Made by a program: the position numbers and the translations under genes. Below are positions 5,242 to 34,982 of a stretch of 64,000 nucleotides of DNA, one piece after another (position 1 is the stretch's first letter; each line of letters starts with the position of its first letter). Source of the stretch: Nitrosopumilus sp. (GTDB lineage Archaea; Thermoproteota; Nitrososphaeria; Nitrososphaerales; Nitrosopumilaceae); the NCBI GenBank assembly GCA_028343855.1, contig JAOLZN010000001.1, positions 27,559 to 91,558 of the forward strand. Reading direction: 5' to 3'. The notes beneath the pieces were generated by a model. It was not told where the DNA came from, searched no databases, and saw only the letters and a program-made list of their open reading frames with translations.

Positions 5242-5408
5242 TACTCTCCCCAGTCTTCGCCTACGCTTTCTGCTTGTTTAAGCTCAATATTTGATCCTTC
5301 TTTTTTGGAAATCTCATAGTCAGCTCCACAATCAGGACAGGAGACTATTTCTCCTACTGCGGCATCTTCTGGGATGTTGAGTTTTGCGTCACATTCTGGA
5401 CAGTTCAT
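5241..5408 (-). CDS. lysW: Amino-group carrier protein LysW (55 aa; missing from ORF track)
   Basis: MNCPECDAKLNIPEDAAVGEIVSCPDCGADYEISKKEGSNIELKQAESVGEDWGE: two CxxC and the C-terminal EDWGE signature. Confidence 0.97.
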   Translation of the reverse strand: MNCPECDAKLNIPEDAAVGEIVSCPDCGADYEISKKEGSNIELKQAESVGEDWGE

Positions 5409-6604
5409 ATTTTTGATTTCCTTTTCTTTTGTAATTTATTAGCTTCCGTTGATTGAATTCCCCATAATTCTACAAATCCTTTGGCTAATCTTTGGTCAAA
5501 TGTTGATTCTACTCCATAAGTGGCAATATCGTGGCTATACAATGAATTATTTGATTTTCTTCCTACTACCCTTAAACTTCCTTTAAATAATTTTAATTTC
5601 ACAGTACCTGAAACTGGTTTTTGTGATTTTTCAATGAAACCATCTAGATCTGCTTTAAGTGGATCTTGCCATAATCCTGAATATACTAAATGTGCCCATT
5701 CATCATCAATCATTGATTTGAATTTATTTTCATGTTTTGTATGAACCATTTTTTCCAAATCTGCATGTGCTTCAATTAAACAAGTTGCTGCAGGAGTTTC
5801 GTATACTTCACGTGATTTAATTCCTACAACCCTATCTTCAATATGATCTATTATTCCAACACCTGCTGCACCAGCTTTTTTGTTGATGTATTCAATTATT
5901 TTTTGAGATCCTTTTATTTTTCCATCTACTTCTACAGGTACACCTTTATCAAATTTAATTTCTAGATATGTTGGTTTATCTGGTAAGTTTTTTGTTTTAA
6001 TCCAAATAAAAGCATCATCTGGTGGTTCATTGTAAGGATCTTCTAAAACTCCTCCTTCAATTGCACGTCCCCATAAATTTTGATCAATACTAAATTTTTT
6101 AGCAACTGCATCAATTTCGATTCCATGTTTTTTTGCAAATTCTAATTCTGTATCCCTGTCTAGATTTTTATCTCTAATTGGTGCTATGATTGGAAGATCT
6201 GAACCTGAACGTAATGTGATATCAAAACGTACTTGATCATTGCCTTTACCTGAACATCCATGTGCTAATGACGTTACCTTTTCTTTTTTTGCAATTTCTA
6301 AAACTTTTTCTGCAATTAATGGTCTAGCAAGAGCTGTTGCTAAACAATATTTTTTTTGATAAAGTGCATTTGCTTTAATTGCTGGAAAAATATAATCATC
6401 AACAAATTCTTTTCTTGCATCAATATTGTAATGTTTTTTAACTCCTAATTTTTTTGCCTTTGCTGCAATTTTTTTAGCATCATCACCTTGACCTACATCA
6501 ACAGTAACTGTGATTACTTCCATATCGTGCTCTTCTTGTAAATATTTTACAACAACAGATGTATCGAGTCCTCCTGAAAATGCAAGAATTCCTTTTTGAG
6601 TCAT
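5405..6604 (-). CDS. argG: Argininosuccinate synthase
   Basis: LAFSGGLDTS, HGCSGKGNDQVRF, SIDQNLWGR; true start taken as MTQKG at 6604, not the ORF-track 6820. Confidence 0.95.
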   Translation of the reverse strand: MTQKGILAFSGGLDTSVVVKYLQEEHDMEVITVTVDVGQGDDAKKIAAKAKKLGVKKHYNIDARKEFVDDYIFPAIKANALYQKKYCLATALARPLIAEKVLEIAKKEKVTSLAHGCSGKGNDQVRFDITLRSGSDLPIIAPIRDKNLDRDTELEFAKKHGIEIDAVAKKFSIDQNLWGRAIEGGVLEDPYNEPPDDAFIWIKTKNLPDKPTYLEIKFDKGVPVEVDGKIKGSQKIIEYINKKAGAAGVGIIDHIEDRVVGIKSREVYETPAATCLIEAHADLEKMVHTKHENKFKSMIDDEWAHLVYSGLWQDPLKADLDGFIEKSQKPVSGTVKLKLFKGSLRVVGRKSNNSLYSHDIATYGVESTFDQRLAKGFVELWGIQSTEANKLQKKRKSKI

Positions 6605-6740
6605 GAAACATCTTTTCCGTAGTATTTTCGAATTTATCTTTTGTGTTGGGCTTATTTTTTCTCCTAATTTTTGATATTTTTCATGACTAGCTTGAGCTAA
6701 AATTCGATGATTATTTAACCGCCAGATATAACGCTGTTTT

Positions 6741-7766
6741 ATGACAATCAAATTGTTACTTTCCATAGGAATTGTTGCATCTGTTCTAGCTTCTATTACT
6801 GGAATCGCCCTTAATTTCAATGAAGAAATTAGTGAAAATAATTTAAGAATTGCATATTTTCCAAATATTGGTCATGCAGTACCAATTGTTGGAATTGAAA
6901 ATAATTTCTTTTTAGAAAAACTTAGTTCTGATACTAAAATTGAAAGTAGAATTTTTGATAGTGGTCCTCAAGTAATAGAATCTTTATTTGCAAATTCTGT
7001 TGATATTGCATATGTTGGACCTGGACCTGCAATTAATGGATTTCTAAATTCAGAAAATAATAATATCCAAATCTTATCTGGTGCTGCAAGTGGAGGTGCA
7101 AGCTTTATTGTTCATCCTGAATCTGAAATTAACTCTGCGTCTGATTTTTCAGGGAAAAAGATTGCTGCTCCTCAAATTGGTAATACTCAAGATGTTTCTT
7201 TACGTCATTATTTATCTGAAAATAATTTAAAACCTGCTGAAAAAGGTGGTTCTGTGATAATTTATAATATTTCTAATCCTGATATTTACACATTATTTGT
7301 AAAAGGTGATATTGATGGTGCATGGGTTGCAGAACCTTGGGCAACAATTTTGGAAACTGAACTTAATGGAAAAAGATTATTTTTTGAAGAAGATTTGTGG
7401 CCCAATAAACAATTTGCTTCTGTATTACTAATTGCAAATACTGATTACGTTAAAAAAAATCCTGAACTTATTTCTAAATTCCTTCTTTCTCATCATCATA
7501 CTGTAGATTGGATTAATGAAAATCCTCTTGAAACTCGAATTATTTTCAATAATTTTTTAAAATCTCATTTAGGTCAATCCTTGTCTGATGATGTGGTTGA
7601 TATTTCACTATCTAATTTAGAAATTACTACTAACCCTGTAAAAGATTCTGTTCATTCTTTTGCTGAAAAAGCTAATGTGTTGGGTTATTTGGGAAGAAAT
7701 GGATATGATATATCTGAAATTTTTTACACTATTGATTCAAATCCTAATCTTGAGGGGGATACTTAG
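6741..7766 (+). CDS. NitT/TauT/SsuA-family ABC transporter substrate-binding protein
   Basis: N-terminal anchor; AYFPNIGHA, DIAYVGPGPAING, GNTQDV, AWVAEPW. Confidence 0.85.
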   Translation: MTIKLLLSIGIVASVLASITGIALNFNEEISENNLRIAYFPNIGHAVPIVGIENNFFLEKLSSDTKIESRIFDSGPQVIESLFANSVDIAYVGPGPAINGFLNSENNNIQILSGAASGGASFIVHPESEINSASDFSGKKIAAPQIGNTQDVSLRHYLSENNLKPAEKGGSVIIYNISNPDIYTLFVKGDIDGAWVAEPWATILETELNGKRLFFEEDLWPNKQFASVLLIANTDYVKKNPELISKFLLSHHHTVDWINENPLETRIIFNNFLKSHLGQSLSDDVVDISLSNLEITTNPVKDSVHSFAEKANVLGYLGRNGYDISEIFYTIDSNPNLEGDT

Positions 7767-8531
7767 ATGACAAAGCTCGAGGCAAAGAATATTGTAAAAT
7801 ATTTTAGTCATGATTCTCATAAACTCAAAGCTCTAGGTGGGGTCAATTTAAAAATTGAATCTGGAGATTTTGTATGCCTAGTTGGACCTTCTGGATGTGG
7901 AAAATCTACCTTTTTACGTATAGTTGCAGGTTTGGAGACGCCTGATGAAGGACAAATTATTTTTGATGGTCATCCTGTAACTGAAACTGGACCTGAAAGA
8001 ATAATGGTCTTCCAAGAAGGTGCTTTATTTCCTTGGTTAAAGGTTCAAGATAATGTTGAATTTGGATTAAAGATGGCTGGAATTTCAAAAGAAGAACGAG
8101 CAAAAATATCTCATAGATATTTAGATATGATGCAATTAACTAAATTTGCAGATTCTTTTACTTACCAACTTTCAACTGGAATGAAACAACGTGTAGCTAT
8201 TGCTAGAGCTCTTGTAATGGATCCTGATGTCTTATTGATGGATGAACCATTTGCAGCACTTGATCCACAAACCAGAGATTTATTGTTAGTTGAAATGCAA
8301 CTAATTTGGGAAAAAACTAAAAAAACTATTTTGTTTGTTACTCATAATGTTGCAGAAGCAGCTGTTCTTGGAACTAAAGTTGCAATTTTTAGTAATAGGC
8401 CATCAACAATTAAAAAAGAATTAATTAATAATTTTCCTAGACCGCGAACTGCTGAAGATGAATCTTTAAAAAAATTCCAACAAGATATTTTATTAGAACT
8501 TAGACCTGAGGTAAAGAAAAATCTAGAGTAA
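7767..8531 (+). CDS. NitT/TauT ABC transporter ATPase
   Basis: Walker A GPSGCGKST, signature LSTGMKQR, Walker B LLMDEPF. Confidence 0.93.
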   Translation: MTKLEAKNIVKYFSHDSHKLKALGGVNLKIESGDFVCLVGPSGCGKSTFLRIVAGLETPDEGQIIFDGHPVTETGPERIMVFQEGALFPWLKVQDNVEFGLKMAGISKEERAKISHRYLDMMQLTKFADSFTYQLSTGMKQRVAIARALVMDPDVLLMDEPFAALDPQTRDLLLVEMQLIWEKTKKTILFVTHNVAEAAVLGTKVAIFSNRPSTIKKELINNFPRPRTAEDESLKKFQQDILLELRPEVKKNLE

Positions 8532-8536
8532 TTATT

Positions 8537-9295
8537 ATGGCAAAAAATTTTACTCCTCATCGCATTGGATTTTATGTTGCAATTGTAGTTGTTTGGCAAA
8601 TTATTGCAATGATTGGAATTTGGCCTGATAATATTTTCCCATCCCCATATGAAGTAGCTGAAGATTTGTTTTATGGTGGTGCAGATGGTAGTCTATTTTA
8701 CGGAATTGCAACAAGTATGTGGAGATTATCTATTGGATTGGCAATTGCGATTGCTGGTGGAATTGTATTGGGAATTTTCATGGCAAGAGTAGAAGCGATC
8801 AATCAAACAGTTGGTTCGTTAGTTTTAGGATTACAATCCATTCCTTCAATTGCTTGGGTTCCATTGGCAATACTTTGGTTTGGTTTAACTGATGGTGGAA
8901 TAATTTTTGTTACTGCAATTGGTGCGATTTTTGCTGTTACAATTAACACCTATACTGGTGTCAAAAATATTGACCCTCATTTTATTGAGGCTGCAAGAAA
9001 CATGGGTGCAAAAGGAACTCAATTAATTACAGCTGTTTTGATACCTGCCGCATTTCCATACATGATTTCTGGATTTAAACAAGGTTGGGCTTTTGCATGG
9101 AGAGGTGTAATCGGTGCTGAAATACTATTTTCTTTCTTGGGATTGGGATTTTTACTAAACGCTGGTCGTTCTTTGAATGATGTTTCTCAAGTTATAGGAA
9201 TTATGGTTGTTATCATGTTGATAGGTTTGATAATTGACGGTGTAATTTTCAAAAGATTAGAAACTAAAGTAATGTCTCGTTGGGGATTGAGATAA
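8537..9295 (+). CDS. NitT/TauT ABC transporter permease
   Basis: Multiple TM helices; EAA loop FIEAARNMGA. Confidence 0.92.
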   Translation: MAKNFTPHRIGFYVAIVVVWQIIAMIGIWPDNIFPSPYEVAEDLFYGGADGSLFYGIATSMWRLSIGLAIAIAGGIVLGIFMARVEAINQTVGSLVLGLQSIPSIAWVPLAILWFGLTDGGIIFVTAIGAIFAVTINTYTGVKNIDPHFIEAARNMGAKGTQLITAVLIPAAFPYMISGFKQGWAFAWRGVIGAEILFSFLGLGFLLNAGRSLNDVSQVIGIMVVIMLIGLIIDGVIFKRLETKVMSRWGLR

Positions 9296-10393
9296 TTATT
9301 TTACTTTTAATGAAACAATAAATGCACATACAATTATTGCAATTGCAAAATACATTACAGCAATGTAATCAAACATGAATGCAATACTTCCTGCTATGAT
9401 TGGTCCTATTACTGTTGAAATAGATAATGTTGAACTAAATATTCCTGTTGATGTTGAACGAGGATTATTTTCCATTAAATGAAAATTTCCTCCAATAAAC
9501 AAAAATGCCCATGTGGCTCCCACTAGTGACATAAATGGCATTGCCATCCACCATTCTGTCACAAATGATAATCCGATAAATACAAACGTCGTACAACCAA
9601 TTCCAATTTTAAATTTAGTAATATTAGAAAGTTGAATCTTACTTGCCATAATATTCATTAAAATAAATGCTGTCAATGTATTGGCAACATACACTATGGA
9701 AATATGATACAAGTCCCCTCCCCATCTCTCCATAATCATTATGGGAAGAATTGTCCATACTGCTGCAGCACCAATATGTCTTAGTAATAATGATAAAAAT
9801 AGAAATTTATTTTTTAAAATTACTAATTTTGTTGTTCCTGGTTCAATTTCTTTTTTCTGTTTAGGATTTGGAAGTTTTATTGTAAAAATTAAACCTATGA
9901 TAAATGACGCTGCACTAATTATGAAAATTAATCTAAGATCACTTGCAATTCCTGCAGCAGCAATTCCTGCTAACCAACCTAAAGCATGAAATGAAATGAC
10001 CGTTGCTGCTCTTTTTTTATCAATATTTGCTTCGTATGTGTAAGCAATCATTGCTGGAATCATTATTCCACTTGCAATTCCTGCAGCAATTCTTACTAGA
10101 AATAACAATGTCAGATCATCTGCAAAATAATGTAATCCAAATGCTATTGCACACCCAATGAATCCAATCCTGATAAATTTGAGTCTAGTTCCTTTCTTAT
10201 CTGAATGCCTTCCAAAATAAATTTCTGATATAATTTGTGCAAAACTGAATGAAGCAATTAGTAATCCAATTTCAAAAATAGAATCTGTTACACCTTTTCC
10301 TATAATTGGCATAAAGACAAATACAATTGAAATTCCTGCATGTTGAAAAAACGTTGCAGTACGAACTAAGTTGTTTACTTGTAACTTTGACAT
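9296..10393 (-). CDS. MFS transporter
   Basis: About 12 hydrophobic segments; motif A variant FGRHSDKKGTR. Confidence 0.8.
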   Translation of the reverse strand: MSKLQVNNLVRTATFFQHAGISIVFVFMPIIGKGVTDSIFEIGLLIASFSFAQIISEIYFGRHSDKKGTRLKFIRIGFIGCAIAFGLHYFADDLTLLFLVRIAAGIASGIMIPAMIAYTYEANIDKKRAATVISFHALGWLAGIAAAGIASDLRLIFIISAASFIIGLIFTIKLPNPKQKKEIEPGTTKLVILKNKFLFLSLLLRHIGAAAVWTILPIMIMERWGGDLYHISIVYVANTLTAFILMNIMASKIQLSNITKFKIGIGCTTFVFIGLSFVTEWWMAMPFMSLVGATWAFLFIGGNFHLMENNPRSTSTGIFSSTLSISTVIGPIIAGSIAFMFDYIAVMYFAIAIIVCAFIVSLKVK

Positions 10394-10504
10394 AAATATA
10401 CACTAATTTCACTTTGACCTAATTTCAACATACGTGCACATTTTACACTATTTTCTATTTTTATCTGAAAAGAGTTAAACTGTACAAGTATTTTTTAAAA
10501 TTCA

Positions 10505-11467
10505 TTGACTGAAAAAGAATCTTTCTTAGATGCACTAAAAACACGTGTTTTACTTTTTGATGGAGCAATGGGTACTGAAATTCAAAAATATGATCCAACT
10601 CCTGAAGATTTTCCAAATAATCAAGATGGATTTAATGATGGTTTGATATTGACTCATCCTGATTGGATAAAACAAATTCATAGAAATTATCTCGATGCGG
10701 GTGCTGATTGTATTGAAACAAATTCTTTTGGTTCTAATAAAATAAAATTAGATGAATATGGATTTGGAGATCAAACCATTGATTTTAATAAAAAAATTGC
10801 AATTTTAGCATGTGAAGTATGTGCTGAATATTCTGATACTACTAGATTTGTAATTGGTTCTATGGGTCCAACTGGTTATTTGCCAAGCTCAGATGATCCT
10901 GATTTGGGACAAATTCCTCTTGATGAAATCCGTGAAGCTTTTGAATTGCAAGCTGAAGGTTTGATTCTTGGTGGTGTAGATGCACTACTAATTGAAACAA
11001 GTCAGGATATTTTGGAAGTTAAATTAGTTATTGAAGCATGTCACAATGCTATGTCTAAAACTGGAAAGAAGGTAGCAATTATTTCTAATACTACTTTGGA
11101 TCAATATGGAAAAATGCTACTAGGTACCAATATTCAATCAGCATACACTACAGTGTCTGATATGGGAATTGATGTATTTGGATTGAATTGTTCAACTGGT
11201 CCAATTGAAATGAATCCTAGTGTACAATGGCTTGATGAACAAAATGAACATAATCTTTTAGTTGTACCCAATGCTGGAATGCCTGAAAATCAAGGAGGAA
11301 GCGCTGTTTACAAAATGACTCCTGATAAAATGGCTGATGCCTTGGGTGATTTCCTTAATCAGTATGATAAAGTTAGAATAATTGGTGGATGTTGTGGCAC
11401 AAACCCTGAACATATCAAATCTTTAAGAAAACTTATTGACGAAAAAGCCAGTTGTATCAAGGGTTAA
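10505..11467 (+). CDS. metH: Methionine synthase, homocysteine-binding module (split MetH, N part)
   Basis: FDGAMGT, GLNCSTGP, IGGCCGT Zn ligands; TTG start. Confidence 0.92.
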   Translation: MTEKESFLDALKTRVLLFDGAMGTEIQKYDPTPEDFPNNQDGFNDGLILTHPDWIKQIHRNYLDAGADCIETNSFGSNKIKLDEYGFGDQTIDFNKKIAILACEVCAEYSDTTRFVIGSMGPTGYLPSSDDPDLGQIPLDEIREAFELQAEGLILGGVDALLIETSQDILEVKLVIEACHNAMSKTGKKVAIISNTTLDQYGKMLLGTNIQSAYTTVSDMGIDVFGLNCSTGPIEMNPSVQWLDEQNEHNLLVVPNAGMPENQGGSAVYKMTPDKMADALGDFLNQYDKVRIIGGCCGTNPEHIKSLRKLIDEKASCIKG

Positions 11468-11498
11468 GTATTTAGAAAAACTGATGTGATTTTAGAGT

Positions 11499-13997
11499 AT
11501 GACTGTTCCAAGAGTAAGTTCTGCATTGAAGGCTGTTGACCTTAAACAAATTCCTGCACCTCTAATTATTGGAGAAAGAATTAACACTCAAGGTTCTCGA
11601 AAAGCCAAAAAACTGGTTCTTGCTGATGATTTTGATGGTTTAGTTGATTTGGCAAGAATTCAAGCCGAAGATGGTGCACATTGTTTAGATGTCTGTGTTG
11701 CTACAACTGAACGCTCCGATGAGCGTGAATTTATGTTGACTTTGGTGAAAAAATTGAGCTTAGAAATTGATGCTCCTTTAGTAATTGATTCTACAGATCC
11801 TGATGTAATTGAATCCTCTGTCAAACAAATTCCTGGTAGGCCTATAATTAATTCAATTAATTTGGAGGGTGATGGAAGTAGATTTGAAAAACTAGCTCCT
11901 GTAATGGCAAAATATGGATTACCTTCAATAGCTTTGTGTATTGGTCCTGATGGGATGGCAAAAACTCCTAAACAAAAAGTAGACACTGCTGAATTACTTT
12001 ATGAAACTGGTAAAAATTATGGATTAAAAATTGAACAATTTATTTTTGATGTACTTACTTTTACTCTAGCAACTGGGGAAGATGAATTTCTTGATGCTGG
12101 TAAAAATACTTTAGATGGAATTCGTCTTGTTAAAGAAAAATTTCCTAATTGCTTTACTACTTTGGGTTTGAGTAACATTAGTTTTGGTTTAATGCCTTAT
12201 GCTAGAAAAATTCTTAATTCTATATTTTTACACCATGCTGTAAAAGTTGGGCTTGATTCAGCAATTGTAAATGCAAAAGAAATCATCCCTTATGGTGAAA
12301 TTGATCCTAAAGAAAAGAAACTTGCTGAAGATTTAATTTTTAATGTCCATCCTGATGCATTAGCAGATTTAATTTCCTATTTTGAAAAAGCAGGACCTCA
12401 AAGTACTGATAATGCAAAAAAAGTTGATGTTGATCCTAGTTGGCCTGCTGGTAAACGTGCTAATTTTAGAATTGTAAATAGACTCAAAGATGGAATTCAA
12501 AATGATGTTGTTTCAGCAATTGCTGACAAACTGGATAAAACTGATTTAATTCAAAATAATGATGGACTTTTGAGCCTAGATCTGCCTAAAGATGTAACAC
12601 ATCCTGGTGCAATTAAGACACTCAATGAGGATTTACTTCCAGCGATGAAGGAAGTGGGTGATAAATTTGGATCTGGAGAATTAATTTTGCCTTTTGTTTT
12701 AAAATCTGCTGAATGTATGAAGGCCTCTGTTGGTGAACTCGAAAAATATCTAGTTAAAGAAGAAGGAACTAGTAAAGGAAAACTTGTTTTAGGAACTGTT
12801 TATGGTGACGTTCATGATATTGGTAAAAATCTTGTTAAAACTATTTTTCAAAATAATGGTTATTCTGTATACGATTTAGGAAAGCAAGTTCCACTTCAAA
12901 AATTCTTAGAAAAAATCGATGAAGTAAAACCTGATGCTATAGGCTTATCTGCATTATTGGTTTCCACTTCTAAACAAATGAAATTTTTTGTTGAACATGC
13001 CAGAAAAAATAACATGACTGTTCCAATTCTTTGTGGTGGTGCTGCAATTAACAGCAATTACATTAATCGAATTGCAAAAGAAGGTGGAATTTATGATCCT
13101 GGTGTGTTTTATTGTAATACTATGTTTGAAGGTTTGAAAACAATGGATATTTTGATCTCTGATGAAAAACCAAAACTTTTGGAAGAATGGAAAACAAAAT
13201 TAGAAAATTGGAAAGAAAGAACTAGTGTTGATGTTGATCCTTCTACTCTTCCCCGAAGTAGTGTTGAACCTGTAACTGCTCCTAACCCTAAAATTATTGG
13301 TGAACCAATTCGTTTAAAATTAGATCAAATCAATATGGATGAAGTTTGGACAATGATTGACAAAAAATCACTATTCAAATTATCTTGGGGACTACGAGGT
13401 AAAGCTGGTTCTGAATCTGAAGAGGCACATGAACAATTACTAACAGAATGGAAAATTAGATTAATTCGTGATAAGTTAATTGAGCCTGAAATCGTATATG
13501 GATATTTCAAATGTCATAATAATGGTCAAAAATTATTAGTTGAAAATCCCTTTGGCGATGATGTAGAATTTGATTTCCCACGTTCTACTCGCCCTGAACA
13601 TTTGTGTTTAGCTGATTATTTTGGCGATGATGATATAGTTGCATTTCAATCTGTTACTGTAGGTACGAAGGTTGCTGATGTTTTAGAAAAATGGAACGAG
13701 GAGGACAAATATTCTGATGCATATTATCTTCATGGGCTAGCTGTTGAACTTGCAGAAGCTTTGGCACAATGGGTTAATGAAAAAATTAAATCTGAATTAG
13801 ACTTGAATAAAGGTGGTTTGAGATATAGCTGGGGATTTCCAAGTTGTCCTGATGTTTCTCAACATCATTTGGTCTGGAAATTATTGCAACCTGAAAAGTC
13901 TGGAATGACTATTACTGAATCTGGTCAAATAATTCCTGAACAATCTACTGCTGCAATAGTACTTCATCACCCAAATGCACAATATTTTGTAATTTAA
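11499..13997 (+). CDS. metH: Methionine synthase, pterin-binding, cobalamin-binding and reactivation modules (split MetH, C part)
   Basis: IGERIN, GDVHDIGKNLV (B12 His), RYSWGFPSCPD. Confidence 0.93.
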   Translation: MTVPRVSSALKAVDLKQIPAPLIIGERINTQGSRKAKKLVLADDFDGLVDLARIQAEDGAHCLDVCVATTERSDEREFMLTLVKKLSLEIDAPLVIDSTDPDVIESSVKQIPGRPIINSINLEGDGSRFEKLAPVMAKYGLPSIALCIGPDGMAKTPKQKVDTAELLYETGKNYGLKIEQFIFDVLTFTLATGEDEFLDAGKNTLDGIRLVKEKFPNCFTTLGLSNISFGLMPYARKILNSIFLHHAVKVGLDSAIVNAKEIIPYGEIDPKEKKLAEDLIFNVHPDALADLISYFEKAGPQSTDNAKKVDVDPSWPAGKRANFRIVNRLKDGIQNDVVSAIADKLDKTDLIQNNDGLLSLDLPKDVTHPGAIKTLNEDLLPAMKEVGDKFGSGELILPFVLKSAECMKASVGELEKYLVKEEGTSKGKLVLGTVYGDVHDIGKNLVKTIFQNNGYSVYDLGKQVPLQKFLEKIDEVKPDAIGLSALLVSTSKQMKFFVEHARKNNMTVPILCGGAAINSNYINRIAKEGGIYDPGVFYCNTMFEGLKTMDILISDEKPKLLEEWKTKLENWKERTSVDVDPSTLPRSSVEPVTAPNPKIIGEPIRLKLDQINMDEVWTMIDKKSLFKLSWGLRGKAGSESEEAHEQLLTEWKIRLIRDKLIEPEIVYGYFKCHNNGQKLLVENPFGDDVEFDFPRSTRPEHLCLADYFGDDDIVAFQSVTVGTKVADVLEKWNEEDKYSDAYYLHGLAVELAEALAQWVNEKIKSELDLNKGGLRYSWGFPSCPDVSQHHLVWKLLQPEKSGMTITESGQIIPEQSTAAIVLHHPNAQYFVI

Positions 13998-26782: not shown

Positions 26783-27448
26783 TTAATCCTCACTGAGTAA
26801 TTTTTGAATCATTCCATCAATGTGACCTGTTTGACCAAATGATACGTCTCTTAGAATCCCTTTTCTATCCACTAAAATTGCTGACGGTGTACCTTGTAGT
26901 GAAAAATTTTCAAATGTTTCAGCAGAAAATTCTTTTGATTTCATATGGTCTTTTACTCTTTGAATTATTTGATTTCTATATTCTTCTGGCTGTGAATCAA
27001 ATTCTGGAATTTGAGGATAAATAAACTCCAATATTTTTTCTTGAGTTATCTCACCTGCACTTTTTGTTAAATTATCCATTCCTACCGGGAATGGAATTTT
27101 AAAGGATAACTTACTTCCTTCTTGCAATTGACCATATTGTGCCAATGCGCTTTTTGTTTCACCTACAACTTCACCTGTTTCTAACAGCATTTTCAAATTA
27201 TCTAAATTATTTTTATCAAAATCTTCAAATGCTGTTGCAAGCCCCAGCACTCTTACTCCTTCGTCTTTATATTTTTCATAAATTTTAATTGCATCTGGAA
27301 TTGCACCCATAAAACATCCTGGACAATTTACTTGAAATACTTCTAACAATACAATGTGATCTTTTTCTTGATCAAAATTTGTTGGAGCCCCTTGCACCCA
27401 TTCTGAAACTCCAAAATTTGGTACTTTTTCACCTATTTTGACTCCCAT
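26783..27448 (-). CDS. Thioredoxin-fold (TlpA/Prx-like) thiol oxidoreductase
   Basis: FQVNCPGC active site; GTPSAILVDRKG. Confidence 0.8.
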   Translation of the reverse strand: MGVKIGEKVPNFGVSEWVQGAPTNFDQEKDHIVLLEVFQVNCPGCFMGAIPDAIKIYEKYKDEGVRVLGLATAFEDFDKNNLDNLKMLLETGEVVGETKSALAQYGQLQEGSKLSFKIPFPVGMDNLTKSAGEITQEKILEFIYPQIPEFDSQPEEYRNQIIQRVKDHMKSKEFSAETFENFSLQGTPSAILVDRKGILRDVSFGQTGHIDGMIQKLLSED

Positions 27449-27545
27449 ATTGTTAAGATATTTTTTTACGATAAATACATACCTCTACAAACTTTTATTT
27501 TTTTTTAAGTAAGCTAATATAGAACACAGAAATTTTCCAAGTGAA

Positions 27546-28034
27546 TTGGAATCTGTACCTAGTGAAAGATTATCTCTTTTTGCGGAGATGGAATCAAAAT
27601 ATGAAAATAATGATACAGAGTATTTTGTGTCACTTTTGAATCACTCTGATTATGTAGTGAGAACTAGAGCCACTTGTATTTTAGTTGATTTTGGTGGTGA
27701 AGATAAAATTCCACACATTGCCCAAGTTTTAAAAAATGATGATAATGAATTGGTTAGACATGAGGCTGCTTTTTCTTTGGGACAAATGTCCTACTCTTCT
27801 GCTATTCCTCCACTAATTGATTCAACTCTAAATGATCCTAGCATGTTTGTGCGCCACGAGGCTGCAATTGCTTTAGGTGTAGTTGGAAATAAGGAAGCGA
27901 AAGAAACTTTACAAAAAGCATTAAACGATCCAGATAAACCCGTAGTAGAATCTGCTGTTGTTGCATTATCAAATATTGAATTTATGGAAACTTTAAGTAA
28001 GAATGAAAAATTTGCTAAATTAACAGGTGGATGA
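27546..28034 (+). CDS. HEAT-repeat protein with two His-Glu motifs, resembling half of deoxyhypusine hydroxylase
   Basis: LVRHEAAFSLGQM and FVRHEAAIALG, with H72 and H104 32 residues apart. Confidence 0.75.
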   Translation: MESVPSERLSLFAEMESKYENNDTEYFVSLLNHSDYVVRTRATCILVDFGGEDKIPHIAQVLKNDDNELVRHEAAFSLGQMSYSSAIPPLIDSTLNDPSMFVRHEAAIALGVVGNKEAKETLQKALNDPDKPVVESAVVALSNIEFMETLSKNEKFAKLTGG

Positions 28035-28836
28035 GATGAATCTTACATATGGTGTAATTACAGTTGTTGGAGTTTTAGTTGCAATATCTTTAGCTCTAAT
28101 TGTTACTGATCCAAATGAAACACCCGAATCTCGTGAACTTGCAATTTCTGAAAATAATATTGCTCAAATTGAAGAAGACCTAACTAAACTTTCAGTTAAT
28201 CCTAGTTTGTTAACTAGTACTAGTAATGTCGGTGATTCCCTAATATTTGAAGTTGAATTTATGGATGATGATGGCAATATTGTTGATCATGTAAATTATG
28301 ATGTCTTTGCAACTCAAAATTCAAATTCGATTCTTTCAGATTCTGCAGCACATCGTCATCCTGGAAAATATCCTATACATGAAAGTATTACATTAAAAGA
28401 TTCTTTAATTGAAATTCAAGTTATTGTACAAGGCCTTGGACATGGTGATGACATTTATGGTCCTAAAGGTATTGAAACTACTTTTAGTTTAACTCCTGCA
28501 GTTTCTGCACAAACTGCAACTAGTACTGAAATTAAAACTGCAGATAATTCTGGTATGAGTATGGATTGTCAGGCATCATTAGATTGCTACACTCCTAGTA
28601 TTGTTACAGTAAGTGTGGGTGATGTAGTAACTATGATTAATTCTGATTCTACTGCAGCCATGCATTCATTTACTGCCGGTACCGTTGATGGATTTACTCC
28701 TTCCCCAAGTGGAACATTTGATACTGGTATAATGAGTGCAAATGATACTTTTGAATGGACTCCAGAAACTTCTGGCGAAGTGCCATACTATTGTTTACTC
28801 CACACTTGGATGCAAGGAACAATTATCGTAGAGTAA
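28027..28836 (+). CDS. Membrane-anchored blue (type-1) copper protein with His-rich middle domain
   Basis: MHSFTAG...YYCLLHTWMQG ligand loop; N-terminal TM; start overlaps the upstream stop. Confidence 0.85.
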   Translation: MDEMNLTYGVITVVGVLVAISLALIVTDPNETPESRELAISENNIAQIEEDLTKLSVNPSLLTSTSNVGDSLIFEVEFMDDDGNIVDHVNYDVFATQNSNSILSDSAAHRHPGKYPIHESITLKDSLIEIQVIVQGLGHGDDIYGPKGIETTFSLTPAVSAQTATSTEIKTADNSGMSMDCQASLDCYTPSIVTVSVGDVVTMINSDSTAAMHSFTAGTVDGFTPSPSGTFDTGIMSANDTFEWTPETSGEVPYYCLLHTWMQGTIIVE

Positions 28837-28876: not shown

Positions 28877-29422
28877 ATGACAACTGCAGTTAGTAATTCT
28901 CCCAAATTTCCTTGTGTTGACTGTCATACTGACTGTTGTAAAGAGTACACTATTTTTGTAAATGCTCATGATGTTTATCGCCTTTCAAATGGTTTGAATC
29001 TAAAACCCGAACTATTTTTACAATTAGTTGGCGCAAAAGATTATTCTCTTGGAATTAAAGTTGAAGAGGGTTTGGTAGACCTTGCTTTGAAACAAGAAAA
29101 TAATGCATGTGAATTTCTTGAAGAAACTGATGAAGTTTTTAGATGTACAGTTAATGATTTCAAACCAGGCGTGTGCAAATCATATCCATTTGAAATGAAA
29201 AATGGTGAATTATCTCAAATGAATGATATCATGTGCCCTACTGATTGGGATCTTACTGGCTTTAAAGAAATGATGGTACCTCATTTACAAAAAGATGAAT
29301 CTGAATGGAAGTTTTATGATCAACTAGTAAAGGAATGGAATTCAAAACATGAGGGGGAATCATTATCTGTATTTCTAAAATTTATGTTAAATCAAGTCAA
29401 ATTATCTCTTAAAGTGCAATAA
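28877..29422 (+). CDS. YkgJ-family cysteine-cluster (Zn/Fe-chelating) protein
   Basis: CVDCHTDCC, ACEFL, CTVNDFKPGVCKSYPF. Confidence 0.85.
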   Translation: MTTAVSNSPKFPCVDCHTDCCKEYTIFVNAHDVYRLSNGLNLKPELFLQLVGAKDYSLGIKVEEGLVDLALKQENNACEFLEETDEVFRCTVNDFKPGVCKSYPFEMKNGELSQMNDIMCPTDWDLTGFKEMMVPHLQKDESEWKFYDQLVKEWNSKHEGESLSVFLKFMLNQVKLSLKVQ

Positions 29423-31478
29423 CTTTACTTCCTTCTTCTTTTGATTCAAATTTGTAAATCTGTTCAACGTTTGAATCTTCAAAAATTTCTGCATCGTGAG
29501 TAATGATTAAAAATTGCATTGGTGTTTGTGAGTTTGAAATTTCTGTTAATTGAGATAATACTCTAACCAATGATTTCTTTCTCTCAGCATCAAGATGTGT
29601 TGTTGGTTCATCAAGTATCATTAGATTTAGGTTTGATGAGCCTAGTAAACTTGCCATTCCTAATCGTAATGCTAATGCCACGCTTACTTTTTCCCCTCCA
29701 CTAAGTGATTCTAATTCTAAAACCTCTGTTTTTGAATAACAGGCAATTGATACGTCTCTGGCTTTTTCTGATAATGTAATTCTTTGAATTTTTGTATTTA
29801 GAAATGATAGATATTCTGAAGCTTTAACTGAAATTGAATTTAATGCCCATGATCTTAAGCTTGTTGCAACAGAACCATCTCTGCTGAAAATATTTGTTTG
29901 AACTTTATCTAATTTTGAAACATATTTTTTTACTACTTTAAGTTCTAAAATTACTTTTTGAATTGTTTCTATTTGTCTTTTGGCTTTATCTATCTTCTCT
30001 AAAATTCCTCCTATCTGTTGATCCATTTGAGATAAACTGTTTTGTTTTTCTGAGATTATATTTTTAAGATTTAAAAATTCTTTTTCACTGAATCCTTTTG
30101 TATCCACTTCTAATTTTAAAATATTTTCAAAAATTACTTTCGAATGATCATCAATTTGTGATATTTCTTTTAAATCATTATTGTTTATCATTGGTAATTT
30201 TTCTTTTTGAATCTGAGTCTCTTTTTGAATTTCTATTAATTCTTCTTTTGTATTTATTGAATGTGCTCTAAGAGTTGCTTCTGCATCTCTTGTTTTTTGT
30301 ACTTTTTCCAAAAATTCTTTCTTCTTTTGAGAATACATATCTTGTTCTTTTTCTTTTAGTTTGATATTTTCTTGTAATTTGATTATCTCTTCTTTGATAT
30401 GTTCTTCTTGAAAAAATGGATTTAATCTTTCTACAATTGAATCACACACTGGACATTTGTTATCTTTTAATTGTAATTTTGATGCAAGAATTTGTTTTTC
30501 TTTTAAAGATGCAATTTGACTTGCCATTTCTTGAATTTTTCTTAATGTGTCCTCTACTGCTTCTTCAACTTTCTGGATTTTTGACTCAAAATCCACTTTT
30601 AGTTTGATTTCCTCAAAACACCCTTCACAATCACGTATTTTACGCTCATTTTCACTAACTTTTTGCTGAATCTCTTTCATTGTTTCTTTAACATATCTTA
30701 ATAGCTCATCTTTTCGTAATTCTAATTGCTTGATTTTGTCAACTTTTGGTGTTTCAATTTCTAATTCTTTTTGCAATTTTTTTAATTCTTCGTGAATCTG
30801 CTTTTGCTTCAGTTCTAGTTGGTTTTTTTCAGGTTCTGCTTCTTTTATCTCCACATGTGATCTTTCAAGATCTCGTTGTAGAATCTCAATATGTGTATCA
30901 TCATATCCTAAATCTGTTTTAATTTTTTCACGAAATTCCTTTGTTACTTTTTTCATGGATTCAGATGCCACATCTAACTTGTCTATTCCAATTATGGCGT
31001 TGAGTAATTCTTTGAATTCTTTTGGCTTTGCATTAATTATTGAATTTAATTCACCTTGTTGAACAATTGATGCTATTTTTAATTTCTCAAAATCCATACC
31101 TATTGTTTTTTCTACTTGTTCTGTCATTGATTCTCCAAATTGTTTTCTCTCTCCTGCTGCAATTTCTACTCTGCCCTCCTTAGTTATTTGAGAAAATGTT
31201 GCAACTAAGCCCCCTTTACTATCAATTTTTCTTACTGTTTCATACTGCTTACCATTTATTAAAAATTCTACTTTTGAATAACCCTGATTTGAACCTCTTT
31301 TAATCAATCCTTTGTTTGATTTCCTTGTATGTTGTCCAAATAATGAAAATGTAATTCCATCTATGATGCTTGATTTTCCTGCACCGTTTTCTCCTACAAA
31401 AATTGTTACTCCTTTTTCAAACTCTAATTTTGTTTCTGAATGTGCTAAAAAATCCCCTAGTTCAATTGAAGTAATCAT
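29409..31478 (-). CDS. rad50: DNA double-strand break repair ATPase Rad50
   Basis: GENGAGKSS, Zn hook CPVC, LSGGE, ILDEPT. Confidence 0.95.
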   Translation of the reverse strand: MITSIELGDFLAHSETKLEFEKGVTIFVGENGAGKSSIIDGITFSLFGQHTRKSNKGLIKRGSNQGYSKVEFLINGKQYETVRKIDSKGGLVATFSQITKEGRVEIAAGERKQFGESMTEQVEKTIGMDFEKLKIASIVQQGELNSIINAKPKEFKELLNAIIGIDKLDVASESMKKVTKEFREKIKTDLGYDDTHIEILQRDLERSHVEIKEAEPEKNQLELKQKQIHEELKKLQKELEIETPKVDKIKQLELRKDELLRYVKETMKEIQQKVSENERKIRDCEGCFEEIKLKVDFESKIQKVEEAVEDTLRKIQEMASQIASLKEKQILASKLQLKDNKCPVCDSIVERLNPFFQEEHIKEEIIKLQENIKLKEKEQDMYSQKKKEFLEKVQKTRDAEATLRAHSINTKEELIEIQKETQIQKEKLPMINNNDLKEISQIDDHSKVIFENILKLEVDTKGFSEKEFLNLKNIISEKQNSLSQMDQQIGGILEKIDKAKRQIETIQKVILELKVVKKYVSKLDKVQTNIFSRDGSVATSLRSWALNSISVKASEYLSFLNTKIQRITLSEKARDVSIACYSKTEVLELESLSGGEKVSVALALRLGMASLLGSSNLNLMILDEPTTHLDAERKKSLVRVLSQLTEISNSQTPMQFLIITHDAEIFEDSNVEQIYKFESKEEGSKVIAL

Positions 31479-32617
31479 TGTTCTTCCTCTTTTTTGAATT
31501 TCTCATAATCGTGCAAAATTATCTCTAACGCTTCATTCATTCCATCTGTTGTCAGTGTTGGTAGGAGTTCTTTAATTGCAAAATCTGCATCTTTTTCTGA
31601 ATCTAGTGTTTTTGCTGAAAGTCTAAACATTTCATCTTCAATTACACTTGGTCTATCTAGAAATACTGATGAATCTGATATCTGCTTTGTAGTAATTTTC
31701 CAAAAACATCTTAGTGTTAATGCATTTAATCTGGCAATTTGTGCCTGAATTTGGTCTGTTTCTATCTCTTCGCCTTGTATTTTTACTTCAATAATTGGTT
31801 TTTTTGTAAGATTACTGATTTTTTCTATGATTTGATCAATTGTTTTTGATAATTCTTTGTATTCTGTATCAAATGAAAATTGAGGTCTTGTGTCTAATTC
31901 AATCCATTTTGGTACTGCTTCATCTCCTGAAATATCTACCTCAAAAAAACCTTTTTTGATATTCTTAATTCCTTCACTAGTTGTTAATTCAATTGAACCT
32001 GGATATGCAATTGGACCTTTTAGATGATTGAATTGTTTGATATCTTTATCATGTAAATGTCCCATTGCATAATATGTGAAATTTTTTGGTAAATCTGTTG
32101 ACTGCAACTCCCCTGCAAATCTGTTGAATTCTGTAATTCCTTGATGTAGTACCAATATCTTATGACCTGAAAATTTTTCTACACTTTTATCTAGATTTGA
32201 AAATACTTCTTCATATTGAGACATTTCTGTTTTTCTAATTTTGTCAAATCCTGCTAACATTATTCCTTTGTATTCTATTGGGTTACCATCACCTATGTAT
32301 TTTGAAAATCCTAAATTGTGATAGATGTATGGAATAGGTGTTGTTCTAATTCTACTGATATCATGTTCACCTAAAATAAAAAATGAGTCTATGTTGTTTT
32401 CTTTTAATCTTTTTAATGCATTTCCCATTTGTACTATTGCACTTCCATTTGGAGTGGGTACATGAAAAATATCTCCTGCAAAAATTACAAAATCCACATT
32501 GTTTTCAATTGATTTGTCAATTGCTTGATTAAAAACATCATACACATCTTCCTCTCTTTCATTGGAACCATACTGAACTAATCCCAAATGTGTATCTGAA
32601 ATATGTGAAAATAACAT
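31475..32617 (-). CDS. mre11: DNA double-strand break repair nuclease Mre11
   Basis: SDTHLG, AGDIFH, GEHD, GHLH, YPGS. Confidence 0.95.
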   Translation of the reverse strand: MLFSHISDTHLGLVQYGSNEREEDVYDVFNQAIDKSIENNVDFVIFAGDIFHVPTPNGSAIVQMGNALKRLKENNIDSFFILGEHDISRIRTTPIPYIYHNLGFSKYIGDGNPIEYKGIMLAGFDKIRKTEMSQYEEVFSNLDKSVEKFSGHKILVLHQGITEFNRFAGELQSTDLPKNFTYYAMGHLHDKDIKQFNHLKGPIAYPGSIELTTSEGIKNIKKGFFEVDISGDEAVPKWIELDTRPQFSFDTEYKELSKTIDQIIEKISNLTKKPIIEVKIQGEEIETDQIQAQIARLNALTLRCFWKITTKQISDSSVFLDRPSVIEDEMFRLSAKTLDSEKDADFAIKELLPTLTTDGMNEALEIILHDYEKFKKEEEQ

Positions 32618-34149
32618 TAGTCTAATAACAAATCTTTTTGAACTAATCCTTGCGTAGATTCTACTCCGACATTTTTCATTTTATCTGCCTTTATCCAAGC
32701 TTTAGTTGCACTTTGATCTGCTCCCATTTTCTTTTCTTTGACTTCTTCCACATGAACCATTGATGGTAAATTCGTCCATTGACCCACAAGAACTGCATCT
32801 CCTACGTTTAATGACGTCAATTGTGATATCAATTCACGACTGGTTGATTCTGTGGCTGAGGCTATCTGTCTCTGGTCATCTTCTTGAATGATTTTCATTA
32901 TTGCAAATGAGCCCATTTGACTGAGGATGTTTAAATCTACACTGCGTGGTCTCTGAGAAACTATTGCTAAACCTACCCCAAATTTCCTTCCTTCTCTAGC
33001 AATTTTTGCAGCCCAATACTTTGCTGCAGTATCGTGATCTTTTGGAATGAATACGTGTGCTTCTTCAAGGATTATGAAAACTGGTTCAAAGAATTTGTAA
33101 TCTTTTTGTTTCTTTGATTTTCCATGTTTTGCTATAGTTGCATTTTTTCTATCTTTTAGTAGTTGTTGCAAATAAAATCCCATTGCTACATTTGCTTGTT
33201 TTTCTGATAATTCTGAAATGTTAATGATGTTTGTACATCCTTCTTTAATGTAGTCCATTGGATTTCCAATTTCTGGATCCAAAATATCATCAAATCTTTT
33301 TTGTGCATCTTCTATGATATCTTGCACTCTGTATGCTGATGTTCTGATTTCTTTTAATTTTTTATCCTCTGAATTTACAAGTAAATCTACTTCATATTCT
33401 AATTTGTTCCAAAATTCTCCTGCTTCTTTTACTTCTTGAGTAAATGACATCCTTAAAACTCGTTGTTGTACATCTGCATTTTCTCTAATTTCTAAAACTT
33501 CTGAAAACTGATCTGCTTCAAGTAATCTTGGATTAATTTTTGCATCAATCACATTCACATTTGGAATATTCAATGTTGTGTAATCATTGTGATAATCAAA
33601 AATTATTACTGTTCCTTTTACTTCTGAAATTTTTTTTGTAATTAAGGAAACTAAATTACTTTTACCCATTCCCGTCATAGCTAGAATTCCTAAGTGTCTA
33701 GATACGATTCTGTCTAGATTTATTTTAGCTTCGATTTTTTTATTTCGTAACAAATTTCCAATTTTTAACCAACCATCTTTTTTTGGACTGAAAATTTCTT
33801 CTAAATCCTGATTTGTTGGTTGTGTAATTTCTGTGCCTGGAATTGGTGGAATTGCAGGAATTATTGACTGACCCCTACGTAAATTCTCTAAAAATCCTAA
33901 AATTCCTATATGTGCTGTGAATGTTTTGTCTCTCTTATTGATATCTGCAATTTCTGTACTTTCTTCTGCTTCATGAAAATTTCTGACATCTGTAAATGCT
34001 GCACTTGATACTGATGATCTCTCAACTAATCCTAAAATTTCTCCTTCATCAATACTGATTTTGATATATTCCCCAACTGATAATGATCGTGATGTTATTG
34101 CTGTCACTGATGTCGGCTTTGATTCTCCAACCACAAAACCCAAACTCAT
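32617..34149 (-). CDS. herA: HerA helicase
   Basis: HAS barrel, RHLGILAMTGMGKS, LEEAH, AREGRKFG, SQRP. Confidence 0.95.
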   Translation of the reverse strand: MSLGFVVGESKPTSVTAITSRSLSVGEYIKISIDEGEILGLVERSSVSSAAFTDVRNFHEAEESTEIADINKRDKTFTAHIGILGFLENLRRGQSIIPAIPPIPGTEITQPTNQDLEEIFSPKKDGWLKIGNLLRNKKIEAKINLDRIVSRHLGILAMTGMGKSNLVSLITKKISEVKGTVIIFDYHNDYTTLNIPNVNVIDAKINPRLLEADQFSEVLEIRENADVQQRVLRMSFTQEVKEAGEFWNKLEYEVDLLVNSEDKKLKEIRTSAYRVQDIIEDAQKRFDDILDPEIGNPMDYIKEGCTNIINISELSEKQANVAMGFYLQQLLKDRKNATIAKHGKSKKQKDYKFFEPVFIILEEAHVFIPKDHDTAAKYWAAKIAREGRKFGVGLAIVSQRPRSVDLNILSQMGSFAIMKIIQEDDQRQIASATESTSRELISQLTSLNVGDAVLVGQWTNLPSMVHVEEVKEKKMGADQSATKAWIKADKMKNVGVESTQGLVQKDLLLD

Positions 34150-34982
34150 CCTAATACCTCTCTAGAACCAATTTCATTACTTAATCCTAACAAACTAACC
34201 ATTTTACCAAGTTCTTTGTCTGATATTTTACAGTTGTTGTGTGCAAGCTTTAGTGCATATGGATATCCACCTACACTAGTTTTAAACAGTTTATTCATTA
34301 TTGATTTCACTTCATCATTATCATGTTTTCCACCTAAAAATTCTAATTTGATAATTGGTGTCGAATCACTTAATCTTACAAATGTTGATGAAATAATTTT
34401 ATCTGGTCCATAATTCCTTTCTACAAATATTTCACTAAAACCTGGACCGTTTGTTACATGATTGTAATAAAAAATATCTCCTGCAAGTGATCCTAAATTC
34501 TCAAATTGTTTTTTTGTATTTGATGTTTTTGCAATAAAAATAACATTTCTTTTTTTATTCATTGTTCTAACAACTTGTGCATCTAGTGCTGATTGTCTTG
34601 TCATAAATTGAGAATGCAGTGAACCATCCATTAAAACTAAATCTACCTCATCTACTGTTTTTTCACATGCATCAATCTCCATTTTACTTGCAATTCTTGA
34701 AAGATCCGTATCTGAACCTAATCCTGAATCATGAAGATCAACAAGGATATCTCCATCAGATTTTATTGAAACTGCTGTAGTTGCCCATAATTCAATGCCT
34801 TGAAATTTTGTATTGTTGAAACTACTATCAATGCCTGCTGTGATCACCTCTTCTTTAGTAGGCGTGAAATCATTCCAATTTGCCTGTGCTTTATGTAAAA
34901 TTTGTTCAAATTTAGGACCTTTTAGAATTGATAACATTTTTTCTCTATTGATAATGGCATCTTTGTAAACTGTATTGAGCAC
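34146..34982 (-). CDS. nurA: NurA 5'-3' nuclease
   Basis: AGIDSS, MDGSL, GYPYALKLAH; in the herA operon. Confidence 0.93.
   Translation of the reverse strand: MLNTVYKDAIINREKMLSILKGPKFEQILHKAQANWNDFTPTKEEVITAGIDSSFNNTKFQGIELWATTAVSIKSDGDILVDLHDSGLGSDTDLSRIASKMEIDACEKTVDEVDLVLMDGSLHSQFMTRQSALDAQVVRTMNKKRNVIFIAKTSNTKKQFENLGSLAGDIFYYNHVTNGPGFSEIFVERNYGPDKIISSTFVRLSDSTPIIKLEFLGGKHDNDEVKSIMNKLFKTSVGGYPYALKLAHNNCKISDKELGKMVSLLGLSNEIGSREVLG

Follow-up and report, generated by a model that had tools for sequence, protein, structure and literature searches.

A half-size relative of deoxyhypusine hydroxylase in Nitrosopumilus and its possible action on aIF5A

The HEAT-repeat gene and its product

The window considered here is the whole stretch of 64,000 nucleotides that was analysed, from Nitrosopumilus sp. 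(contig JAOLZN010000001.1, positions 27,559 to 91,558 of the forward strand). It is AT-rich, with a G+C content of 31.7%, and its closest relatives are Nitrosopumilus genomes. On the plus strand, at 27546-28034, lies an open reading frame (ORF) with a TTG start, which encodes a HEAT-repeat protein of 162 residues. An earlier note on this DNA, whose translation agrees with ours, had described this protein as half of a deoxyhypusine hydroxylase (DOHH) and as a candidate for the missing archaeal enzyme. The analysis covered the ORF, its Pfam matches, an AlphaFold2 (AF2) model and the homologues of the protein. It shows a protein specifically homologous to one half of DOHH, and neither a phycobilin lyase nor a generic HEAT_PBS protein, which may act on aIF5A as a homodimer.

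The TTG start is sound, since orthologues of the same length have ATG at the equivalent site and since residues 7-16 (ERLSLFAEME), like the residues that precede the first internal Met, are kept in homologues of 50% identity. The protein is built of four HEAT_PBS-type repeats (approximately residues 24-52, 55-85, 88-118 and 120-150), flanked by a family-specific N-terminal helix and a C-terminal tail. Pfam recognizes generic HEAT repeats only (HEAT_2, 6.4e-26; HEAT_PBS, 7e-15), and the single-sequence AF2 model is an all-helical solenoid of four hairpins, with a predicted local distance difference test (pLDDT) of 77. The dipeptide His-Glu (HE) occurs at just two sites, with the two His 32 residues apart, exactly as the earlier note had it. 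The first, H72-E73 (27759-27764, plus strand), lies in the motif LVRHEAAFSLGQM of repeat 2, and the second, H104-E105 (27855-27860, plus strand), in the motif FVRHEAAIALGVVG of repeat 3. Seven residues past H72 stands G79 (27780-27782, plus strand), the counterpart of G63 and G214 of human DOHH. The G79 column and the second HE pair are invariant in our alignments A1 and A3; the first HE pair, also located by BLASTP, is invariant in A1, A2 and A3.

A word-indexed search returned 2424 matches. The best 120 of these 2424, all from Nitrosopumilaceae and hereafter called the orthologues, are 82-94% identical to the window protein and nearly all 162 residues long. The motif.V.HE.....GQ. is present in 119 of the 120, and so is FVRHEAAIALGVVG. 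Species-representative genomes contain at least 581 relatives, and among the 80 matches listed there almost all belong to Nitrosopumilaceae. Homologues of about 50% identity keep both HE motifs and a C-terminal ...K-x-T-G-G. In the source databases the orthologues are labelled 'HEAT repeat protein' or 'PBS lyase', and several are called 'deoxyhypusine monooxygenase' by JGI. The likeness to DOHH has therefore not gone wholly unnoticed, as the automatic JGI pipeline already picks it up; no mention of the half-size family was found in the searchable literature.

The C-terminal tail (NEKFAKLTGG, residues 155-162; 28008-28031, plus strand) terminates in Gly-Gly and is kept in the orthologues, all 120 of which end in [KTR]LTGG. 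F156, K158, T160, G161 and G162 are invariant in the 50%-identical homologues (...F-x-K-x-T-G-G), and eukaryotic DOHH has no equivalent of this tail, which might provide a dimer contact or a substrate contact. A ubiquitin-like modifier, which the Gly-Gly end could call to mind, is ruled out by the fold, a HEAT solenoid and not a beta-grasp.

T/A-rich, TATA-like stretches (TTTATTTTTTTTTAA and TAATATA) are found at 27494-27522, 24-50 nt 5' of the TTG codon; they would suit an archaeal promoter whose transcript has a short leader or none. The gene is covered by marine metatranscriptome contigs, one of which (27725-28280) crosses an 8-nt overlap into the next gene. These contigs are assembled, may in part derive from DNA, and are modest evidence of expression.

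Relationship to the halves of DOHH

In human DOHH, residues H56, H89, E90, H207, H240 and E241 anchor two irons, while E57, E90, E208 and E241, together with two Gly, bind the deoxyhypusine chain (PMC9117371). The Gly needed for substrate binding is printed as 'G65' in that paper and corresponds to G63 in our alignment. The human sequence used is identical to PDB entry 4d4z_A over residues 1-289; the N-half motif that the earlier note had quoted, with His residues 33 apart, is indeed the one found there (H56 and H89). BLASTP aligns the window protein with the human N half at 39% identity over 113 aa (E 5e-21) and with the C half at 35% identity over 110 aa (E 1e-14). H72/E73 falls on H56/E57 and H207/E208, and H104/E105 on H89/E90 and H240/E241. 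The two human halves are 40% identical to each other, a value comparable to that between the window protein and either of them.

The iron ligands that each DOHH half supplies (His, His and Glu, with the HE pairs on repeats 2 and 3 and 32-33 residues apart) are all present in the window protein, and so are the substrate-binding residues of each half (the Glu of the HE pairs and the Gly at +7), here E73, E105 and G79. Alignment A3 holds 104 proteins: the fused relative P0123 and seven DPANN proteins, all described below, and about 95 eukaryotic DOHHs. All four HE pairs and both Gly at +7 are invariant in it, and H72, E73, G79, H104 and E105 are invariant through the family, the DPANN proteins and the eukaryotic enzymes. 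The comparison shows a four-repeat unit that carries one complete set of the residues contributed by each DOHH half. In the literal sense, a DOHH is a single chain of eight repeats with four HE motifs, and this protein has four repeats and two HE motifs. It is not a canonical DOHH; every per-half feature tested is present except one Glu.

Since HEAT repeats resemble one another, the comparison with generic HEAT proteins deserves attention. A search of PDB sequences returned human DOHH as the best natural match, at 98.8 bits; the other natural HEAT proteins were YibA (32 bits), MTH187 (23) and CpcE (20.5). Designed consensus proteins, the alphaReps, outscore DOHH in this search because their repeats are idealized. 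Foldseek, run with the monomer model, also gave 4d4z as the best natural match, with a query-normalized template modelling (TM) score, TMq, of 0.69, and equal E-values for alphaReps, so that comparison of folds does not by itself discriminate between DOHH and alphaReps. These results bear on one alternative, namely that the protein is a non-catalytic HEAT_PBS adaptor, whose concave face would bind a partner and whose His-Glu pairs would serve binding instead of metal chemistry. The alphaRep binders, with the top PDB scores and equal Foldseek E-values, speak for it, as does the match of the HE positions to the variable, partner-contacting positions of the alphaRep design. Pfam and NCBIfam, moreover, detect similarity only to generic HEAT, HEAT_PBS and phycobilisome-lyase-like families. 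The NCBIfam scores themselves (NblB, 41.1 bits for a cut-off of 300; CpcE, 32.6 for 330; CpcF, 16.9 for 220) are about one tenth of the family cut-offs, which tells against an adaptor of this kind. A phycobilin lyase was rejected on these scores and on the absence of a cyanobacterial context.

When 1.84 billion representatives were searched exhaustively, most of the matches were giant HEAT proteins with many repeats, which swamp the ranking because the scores of their repeats sum; five small relatives also came up. The 143 best HEAT matches of the window protein in this search were taken as the generic control. Of their 1640 recognizable repeats, 6 (0.37%) have HE directly after V-R/K, and of 734 pairs of neighbouring repeats, 2 have it in both members. 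Conservation of the two HE motifs across orthologues, which the earlier note had singled out as a check, is borne out: both, at a spacing of 32, are found in 117 of the 120. The two-HE pattern exceeds chance by far.

The decisive test was made in the reverse direction, with hidden Markov models built from either the N halves or the C halves of eukaryotic DOHHs only. The window protein scores 84.9 bits with the N and 81.6 bits with the C profile, and for the orthologues the medians are 82 and 80 and the lowest scores 70 and 69, respectively. The 143 generic proteins reach at most 58.4 and 68.0 bits, with medians of 41 and 39. With a profile of the archaeal family the medians are 67 bits for DOHH-like proteins and 52 for generic ones, the ranges overlapping. 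The comparison with phycobilin lyases and generic HEAT proteins, likewise proposed beforehand, thus came out on the side of DOHH.

The reverse test, in which the protein stands 17-26 bits above all generic modules, counts against an adaptor. So does the two-His/two-Glu/one-Gly pattern, which never varies among the 50%-identical homologues, the DPANN proteins and eukaryotic DOHH, as well as the presence of the fused form P0123 within an operon for deoxyhypusine synthase (DHS). In favour of the adaptor, P0260, a generic giant HEAT protein of 1029 aa, carries the sequence VRHEAAQALG in five repeats, at approximately residues 523-995. Its sequence shows that the HE dipeptide can spread by repeat amplification outside the DOHH architecture and without DOHH function. 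All told, we consider an adaptor improbable and keep to a protein homologous to one DOHH half.

Two-half relatives and gene neighbourhoods

P0123 (363 aa) consists of two tandem half units. They share 57% identity with each other and 52-54% with the window protein. It has the same N-terminal EME helix, and its C-terminal half ends in RLIGG. Unlike the window protein, it unites two copies in one chain, has a signal-like N terminus and is encoded in a cluster of DHS, polyamine and IF5A-like genes. Its gene lies directly downstream of four genes on the same strand, those for DHS (337 bits with Pfam DS), an Orn/Arg decarboxylase, a CN-hydrolase (N-carbamoylputrescine amidase type) and an agmatine deiminase. 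The cluster is flanked by two genes whose products pass the Pfam IF5A-like_N threshold and whose lysine loops, KAGKHGGPK and KTGKQGHIK, keep the G-K-H/Q-G element. Both proteins are non-canonical and have the IF5A-N domain; one has a long acidic N-terminal extension and scant room for a C-terminal OB domain.

This 'hypusination island' occupies positions 4857-11902 of locus L088 (contig SRR21363124_14), and the same region is found in L081. The contig is DPANN-like, because the island DHS is 65-77% identical to DHS of Woesearchaeota and Nanoarchaeota and because the pair of DHS and Orn/Arg-decarboxylase genes recurs on DPANN contigs. Indeed, this pair is also present in the three related DPANN DHS loci with called genes that were examined, on contigs that carry archaeal ribosomal protein genes, but its extension by a HEAT gene is so far peculiar to the island. 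Upstream of the island are genes for a dioxygenase of the TauD/GBBH type, a cNMP-binding protein and a 1017-aa protein combining HEAT repeats with cNMP binding. A scan of viral contigs with P0123 yielded no relatives, and thus no evidence of a viral DHS island. The association of substrate-like proteins, polyamine supply, DHS and a two-half HE-HEAT protein in one predicted cluster is the strongest functional hint at hand, and the tandem fusion argues that the two halves probably work together.

When P0123 was used as a query against 5.8 billion proteins, two groups came directly after the family itself: eukaryotic DOHHs (Galdieria, plants and fungi; E ~1e-24, 70-80% coverage) and HEAT proteins of about 280 aa with four HE motifs from DPANN archaea. 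The latter are P0302, P0313, P0318 (labelled 'Nanoarchaeota'), P0320, P0323, P0325 and P0358. Their contigs carry archaeal genes, such as those for PCNA and NOG1, and a full-length DOHH-like architecture therefore does occur in DPANN archaea. Like the window protein they are archaeal, and they show the same signature of HE pairs, Gly and spacing; the N half of P0313 is 46% identical to the window protein, and P0323 also bears the JGI name 'deoxyhypusine monooxygenase'. They differ from it in having two halves per chain, with VKHE and VLHE/VIHE as second motifs, and in their genomic neighbours, a NOG1 GTPase and PCNA. The genes for P0325 and P0302 (7001-7849 of L089, 4473-5321 of L090 and 7001-7849 of L091) are each convergent with a NOG1-type GTPase gene. 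No mention of these four-HE proteins was found in the searchable literature.

The halves of the different groups were compared as mean identities over a core of 116 residues, no tree being built. The N and C halves are 39% identical to each other in eukaryotes, 42% in the DPANN proteins and 57% in P0123, compared with 25-34% between halves of different lineages; constraints of symmetry could inflate the similarity between N and C. The ammonia-oxidizer half is equidistant from the eukaryotic N and C halves (34% each), and the DPANN halves are about 31% identical to it. Read most simply, these values mean that a half-size ancestor was duplicated internally on three independent occasions. It is plausible that the half form came first, and the two-half enzymes of eukaryotes, of DPANN archaea and of the P0123 type each appear to derive from it through an internal duplication of their own.

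Around the gene in the window lie those for ribosomal protein L15e, a redoxin-like protein (26783-27448, minus strand), a cupredoxin-like protein, a CxxCxxCC protein and Rad50/Mre11/HerA/NurA; the window holds no second copy of the half-size family. The cupredoxin-like gene (28027-28836, plus strand) is the one that shares 8 nt with the HEAT gene. Its product is membrane-anchored by an N-terminal helix and has no Pfam match, and its C terminus (YYCLLHTWMQG) resembles a type-1 copper site. The DNA-repair cluster is located just downstream of the HEAT gene, at 29409-34982 on the minus strand; Rad50 and Mre11 were assigned by Pfam, and HerA and NurA inferred from synteny with 10341-15948 of L175. 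Across Nitrosopumilaceae, the cupredoxin-like gene is a neighbour in 64 of 66 loci, the redoxin gene in 69 of 74, L15e in 59 of 67 and Rad50 in 47 of 57. In P0300, a database protein of 204 aa, an N-terminal portion of the redoxin-like neighbour is fused to a C-terminal portion of the HEAT protein. This apparent redoxin-HEAT fusion is probably a chimera of assembly or gene calling, the two genes being on opposite strands.

In distant members of the family, the neighbours are instead NifU and ferritin genes, or genes for a DRG-type GTPase, PurP or Tat. The half-size gene for P0246, for example, lies between a NifU-type scaffold gene and LOG-like and ferritin genes (2700-4698 of L082 and 1200-3198 of L083); this iron-related neighbourhood may or may not be meaningful. 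P0299, another distant member, is again encoded near Rad50, which suggests an old synteny within Nitrososphaeria. Genes for DHS or aIF5A are absent at five further half-size homologues and at two of the full-length DPANN loci.

Such neighbours raise the possibility that the protein handles metal, as an iron or copper chaperone, sensor or buffer working with the adjacent redox proteins. This would account for the overlapping cupredoxin-like gene, a neighbour in 64 of 66 loci, and the transcript contig that runs across both, for the redoxin-like gene upstream in 69 of 74 loci, and for the distant homologue placed between NifU and ferritin genes. The neighbourhoods, however, differ between lineages. 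Since the gene order is not kept beyond Nitrosopumilaceae, the conserved neighbours are better read as inherited synteny than as a functional link. In addition, the cupredoxin-like domain is probably extracellular, given its N-terminal membrane helix, whereas the HEAT protein has no signal sequence, and a metal-handling role would leave the specific relationship to DOHH unexplained. We accord it little likelihood.

Proposed function and comparison with known enzymes

Archaea have been known since 1990 to contain hypusine. Every archaeal genome encodes DHS, and among crenarchaea hypusine has been reported for Pyrodictium occultum and Thermoproteus tenax (PMC5178350). The statement of the earlier note that no archaeal DOHH has been identified agrees with papers of 2016, 2018 and 2021 (PMC5178350, PMC6105217, PMC8153317), and two reviews of 2026 report none either (PMC12856214, PMC13602936); pull-downs in Sulfolobus brought down no DOHH-like protein (PMC6105217). 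Literature searches combining DOHH or hypusine with Thaumarchaeota, Nitrosopumilus or Asgard returned nothing.

We hold it slightly more probable than improbable that the HEAT protein is a homodimeric di-iron DOHH acting on aIF5A. DHS would first place the deoxyhypusine side chain on the conserved Lys of aIF5A. Two subunits of the HEAT protein would pair through their concave faces, around the dyad that in DOHH relates the N half to the C half, and H72, H104 and E105 of each subunit would bind one iron, the dimer thus forming a di-iron centre. With the amino-butyl chain of the substrate held by E73 and G79 of both subunits, this centre would activate O2 and hydroxylate deoxyhypusine on aIF5A. 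In these archaea, which are obligate aerobes, fully hypusinated aIF5A would result. In the 4d4z structure there is reportedly one iron per half, with the ligands split between the halves. The symmetric list of ligands published for the human enzyme is consistent with such a split (PMC9117371).

Several observations weigh against this proposal. The Glu found four residues after the second His in eukaryotes (E93/E244, at least 90% conserved) is I108 in the window protein, as the earlier note had pointed out for the third Glu of the HEAGE motif; the position is Ile or Val across the family and Met or Phe in the DPANN proteins. Single-sequence, per-domain scores for DOHH (53-63 bits) overlap those of the best generic modules (55). 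In the 80 Nitrosopumilaceae loci, no DHS or aIF5A gene is found within 6 kb, nor anywhere in the 64-kb window, the only conserved neighbours being L15e, the redoxin-like gene, the cupredoxin-like membrane protein and Rad50. The linkage between an HE-HEAT gene and DHS comes from a single contig, and a metagenome scan found an HE-HEAT gene in none of the 80 closest DPANN DHS loci, 45 of which exceed 8 kb. The N terminus of P0123, which follows a plausible Shine-Dalgarno site, resembles a signal peptide; if this signal is real, the protein would be outside the cell. Its AF2 model (pLDDT 82; predicted TM score, pTM, 0.81) superimposes on human DOHH 4d4z over 309-313 columns with a TM score of 0.82, as a DOHH-like dyad, and on continuous alphaRep solenoids with TM scores of 0.5 or less and root-mean-square deviations of 12-16 A, but this dyad is not independent evidence because the alignment behind the model is dominated by true DOHHs. 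No paper was found on the hypusine state of aIF5A in ammonia oxidizers. Finally, Pyrodictium and Thermoproteus are strict anaerobes. An O2-dependent di-iron enzyme cannot work in strictly anaerobic crenarchaea that contain hypusine, which must therefore use a different, O2-independent enzyme. The protein is a candidate for the missing DOHH in ammonia oxidizers, as the earlier note proposed, but not the general archaeal answer that its wording implied.

Some of these points could equally be accommodated by an iron oxygenase homologous to DOHH whose substrate is a different one, for instance some other modified lysine, a free polyamine or a different protein, and which works either as a di-iron dimer or with a single iron bound by two His and one Glu. 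The absence of DHS/aIF5A linkage in ammonia oxidizers and the replacement of E93/E244 by Ile or Val are in keeping with this possibility. So are the conserved N-terminal helix and Gly-Gly tail, both peculiar to the family and absent from DOHH, and the NifU, ferritin and LOG-like neighbours in one lineage. Even the likely substrates in the DPANN island are proteins with only an IF5A-N domain, an indication that targets can vary. On the other hand, the residues with which the human enzyme binds deoxyhypusine, two Glu and the Gly at +7, are all kept, and no other substrate is known for any DOHH-type enzyme (PMC9117371). DHS is, furthermore, the only informative gene context found. We regard another substrate as unlikely, if worth keeping in sight, and retain deoxyhypusine on aIF5A as the substrate to be considered first.

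A broader proposal, which we advance tentatively and with doubt somewhat outweighing belief, is that ammonia oxidizers make true hypusine with a single-unit, homodimeric di-iron DOHH, and that this half is ancestral to the separately duplicated eight-repeat enzymes. If so, the second enzyme of hypusination would have originated in archaea, and O2 would serve to hydroxylate deoxyhypusine in no fewer than two archaeal lineages. In practical terms, the window protein is a testable candidate in the cultivable genus Nitrosopumilus, predicted to be a di-iron enzyme of two 18-kDa subunits. Confirmation would establish how one major archaeal group carries out the second step of the pathway, show that a di-iron centre can span a homodimer of four-repeat HEAT units and provide a plausible pre-duplication ancestor of eukaryotic DOHH. 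It would also sharpen the puzzle of hypusine in strictly anaerobic crenarchaea.

Three known systems invite comparison. EpmC (YfcM) is a functional analogue, which hydroxylates the modified Lys34 of bacterial EF-P (PMC6105217, PMC12856214). Its fold and metal site are unrelated, and no sequence relationship to the window protein was seen in the searches made here. The generic HEAT_PBS proteins (MTH187, YibA, CpcE/CpcF, NblB and the alphaReps) share with the window protein the consensus VR..AA..LG.IG...A...L and the fold; they have no conserved HE pairs and are lyases or scaffold proteins, not metalloenzymes. Eukaryotic DOHH (human 4d4z, yeast Lia1) is, like the window protein, an alpha-solenoid of the HEAT_PBS type with HE on repeats 2 and 3 at a distance of 32-33 residues and, past the first His, an aromatic residue at +4 and the Gly at +7, and each of its halves is 35-39% identical to the window protein. 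It differs in size, with about 300 aa, eight repeats and four HE motifs against 162 aa, four repeats and two HE motifs, and in the linker with an SVDPAPP motif that joins its halves, for which the window protein has no counterpart. Because the window protein corresponds to one half only, it would need to dimerize to build the di-iron site that eukaryotic DOHH assembles within a single chain.

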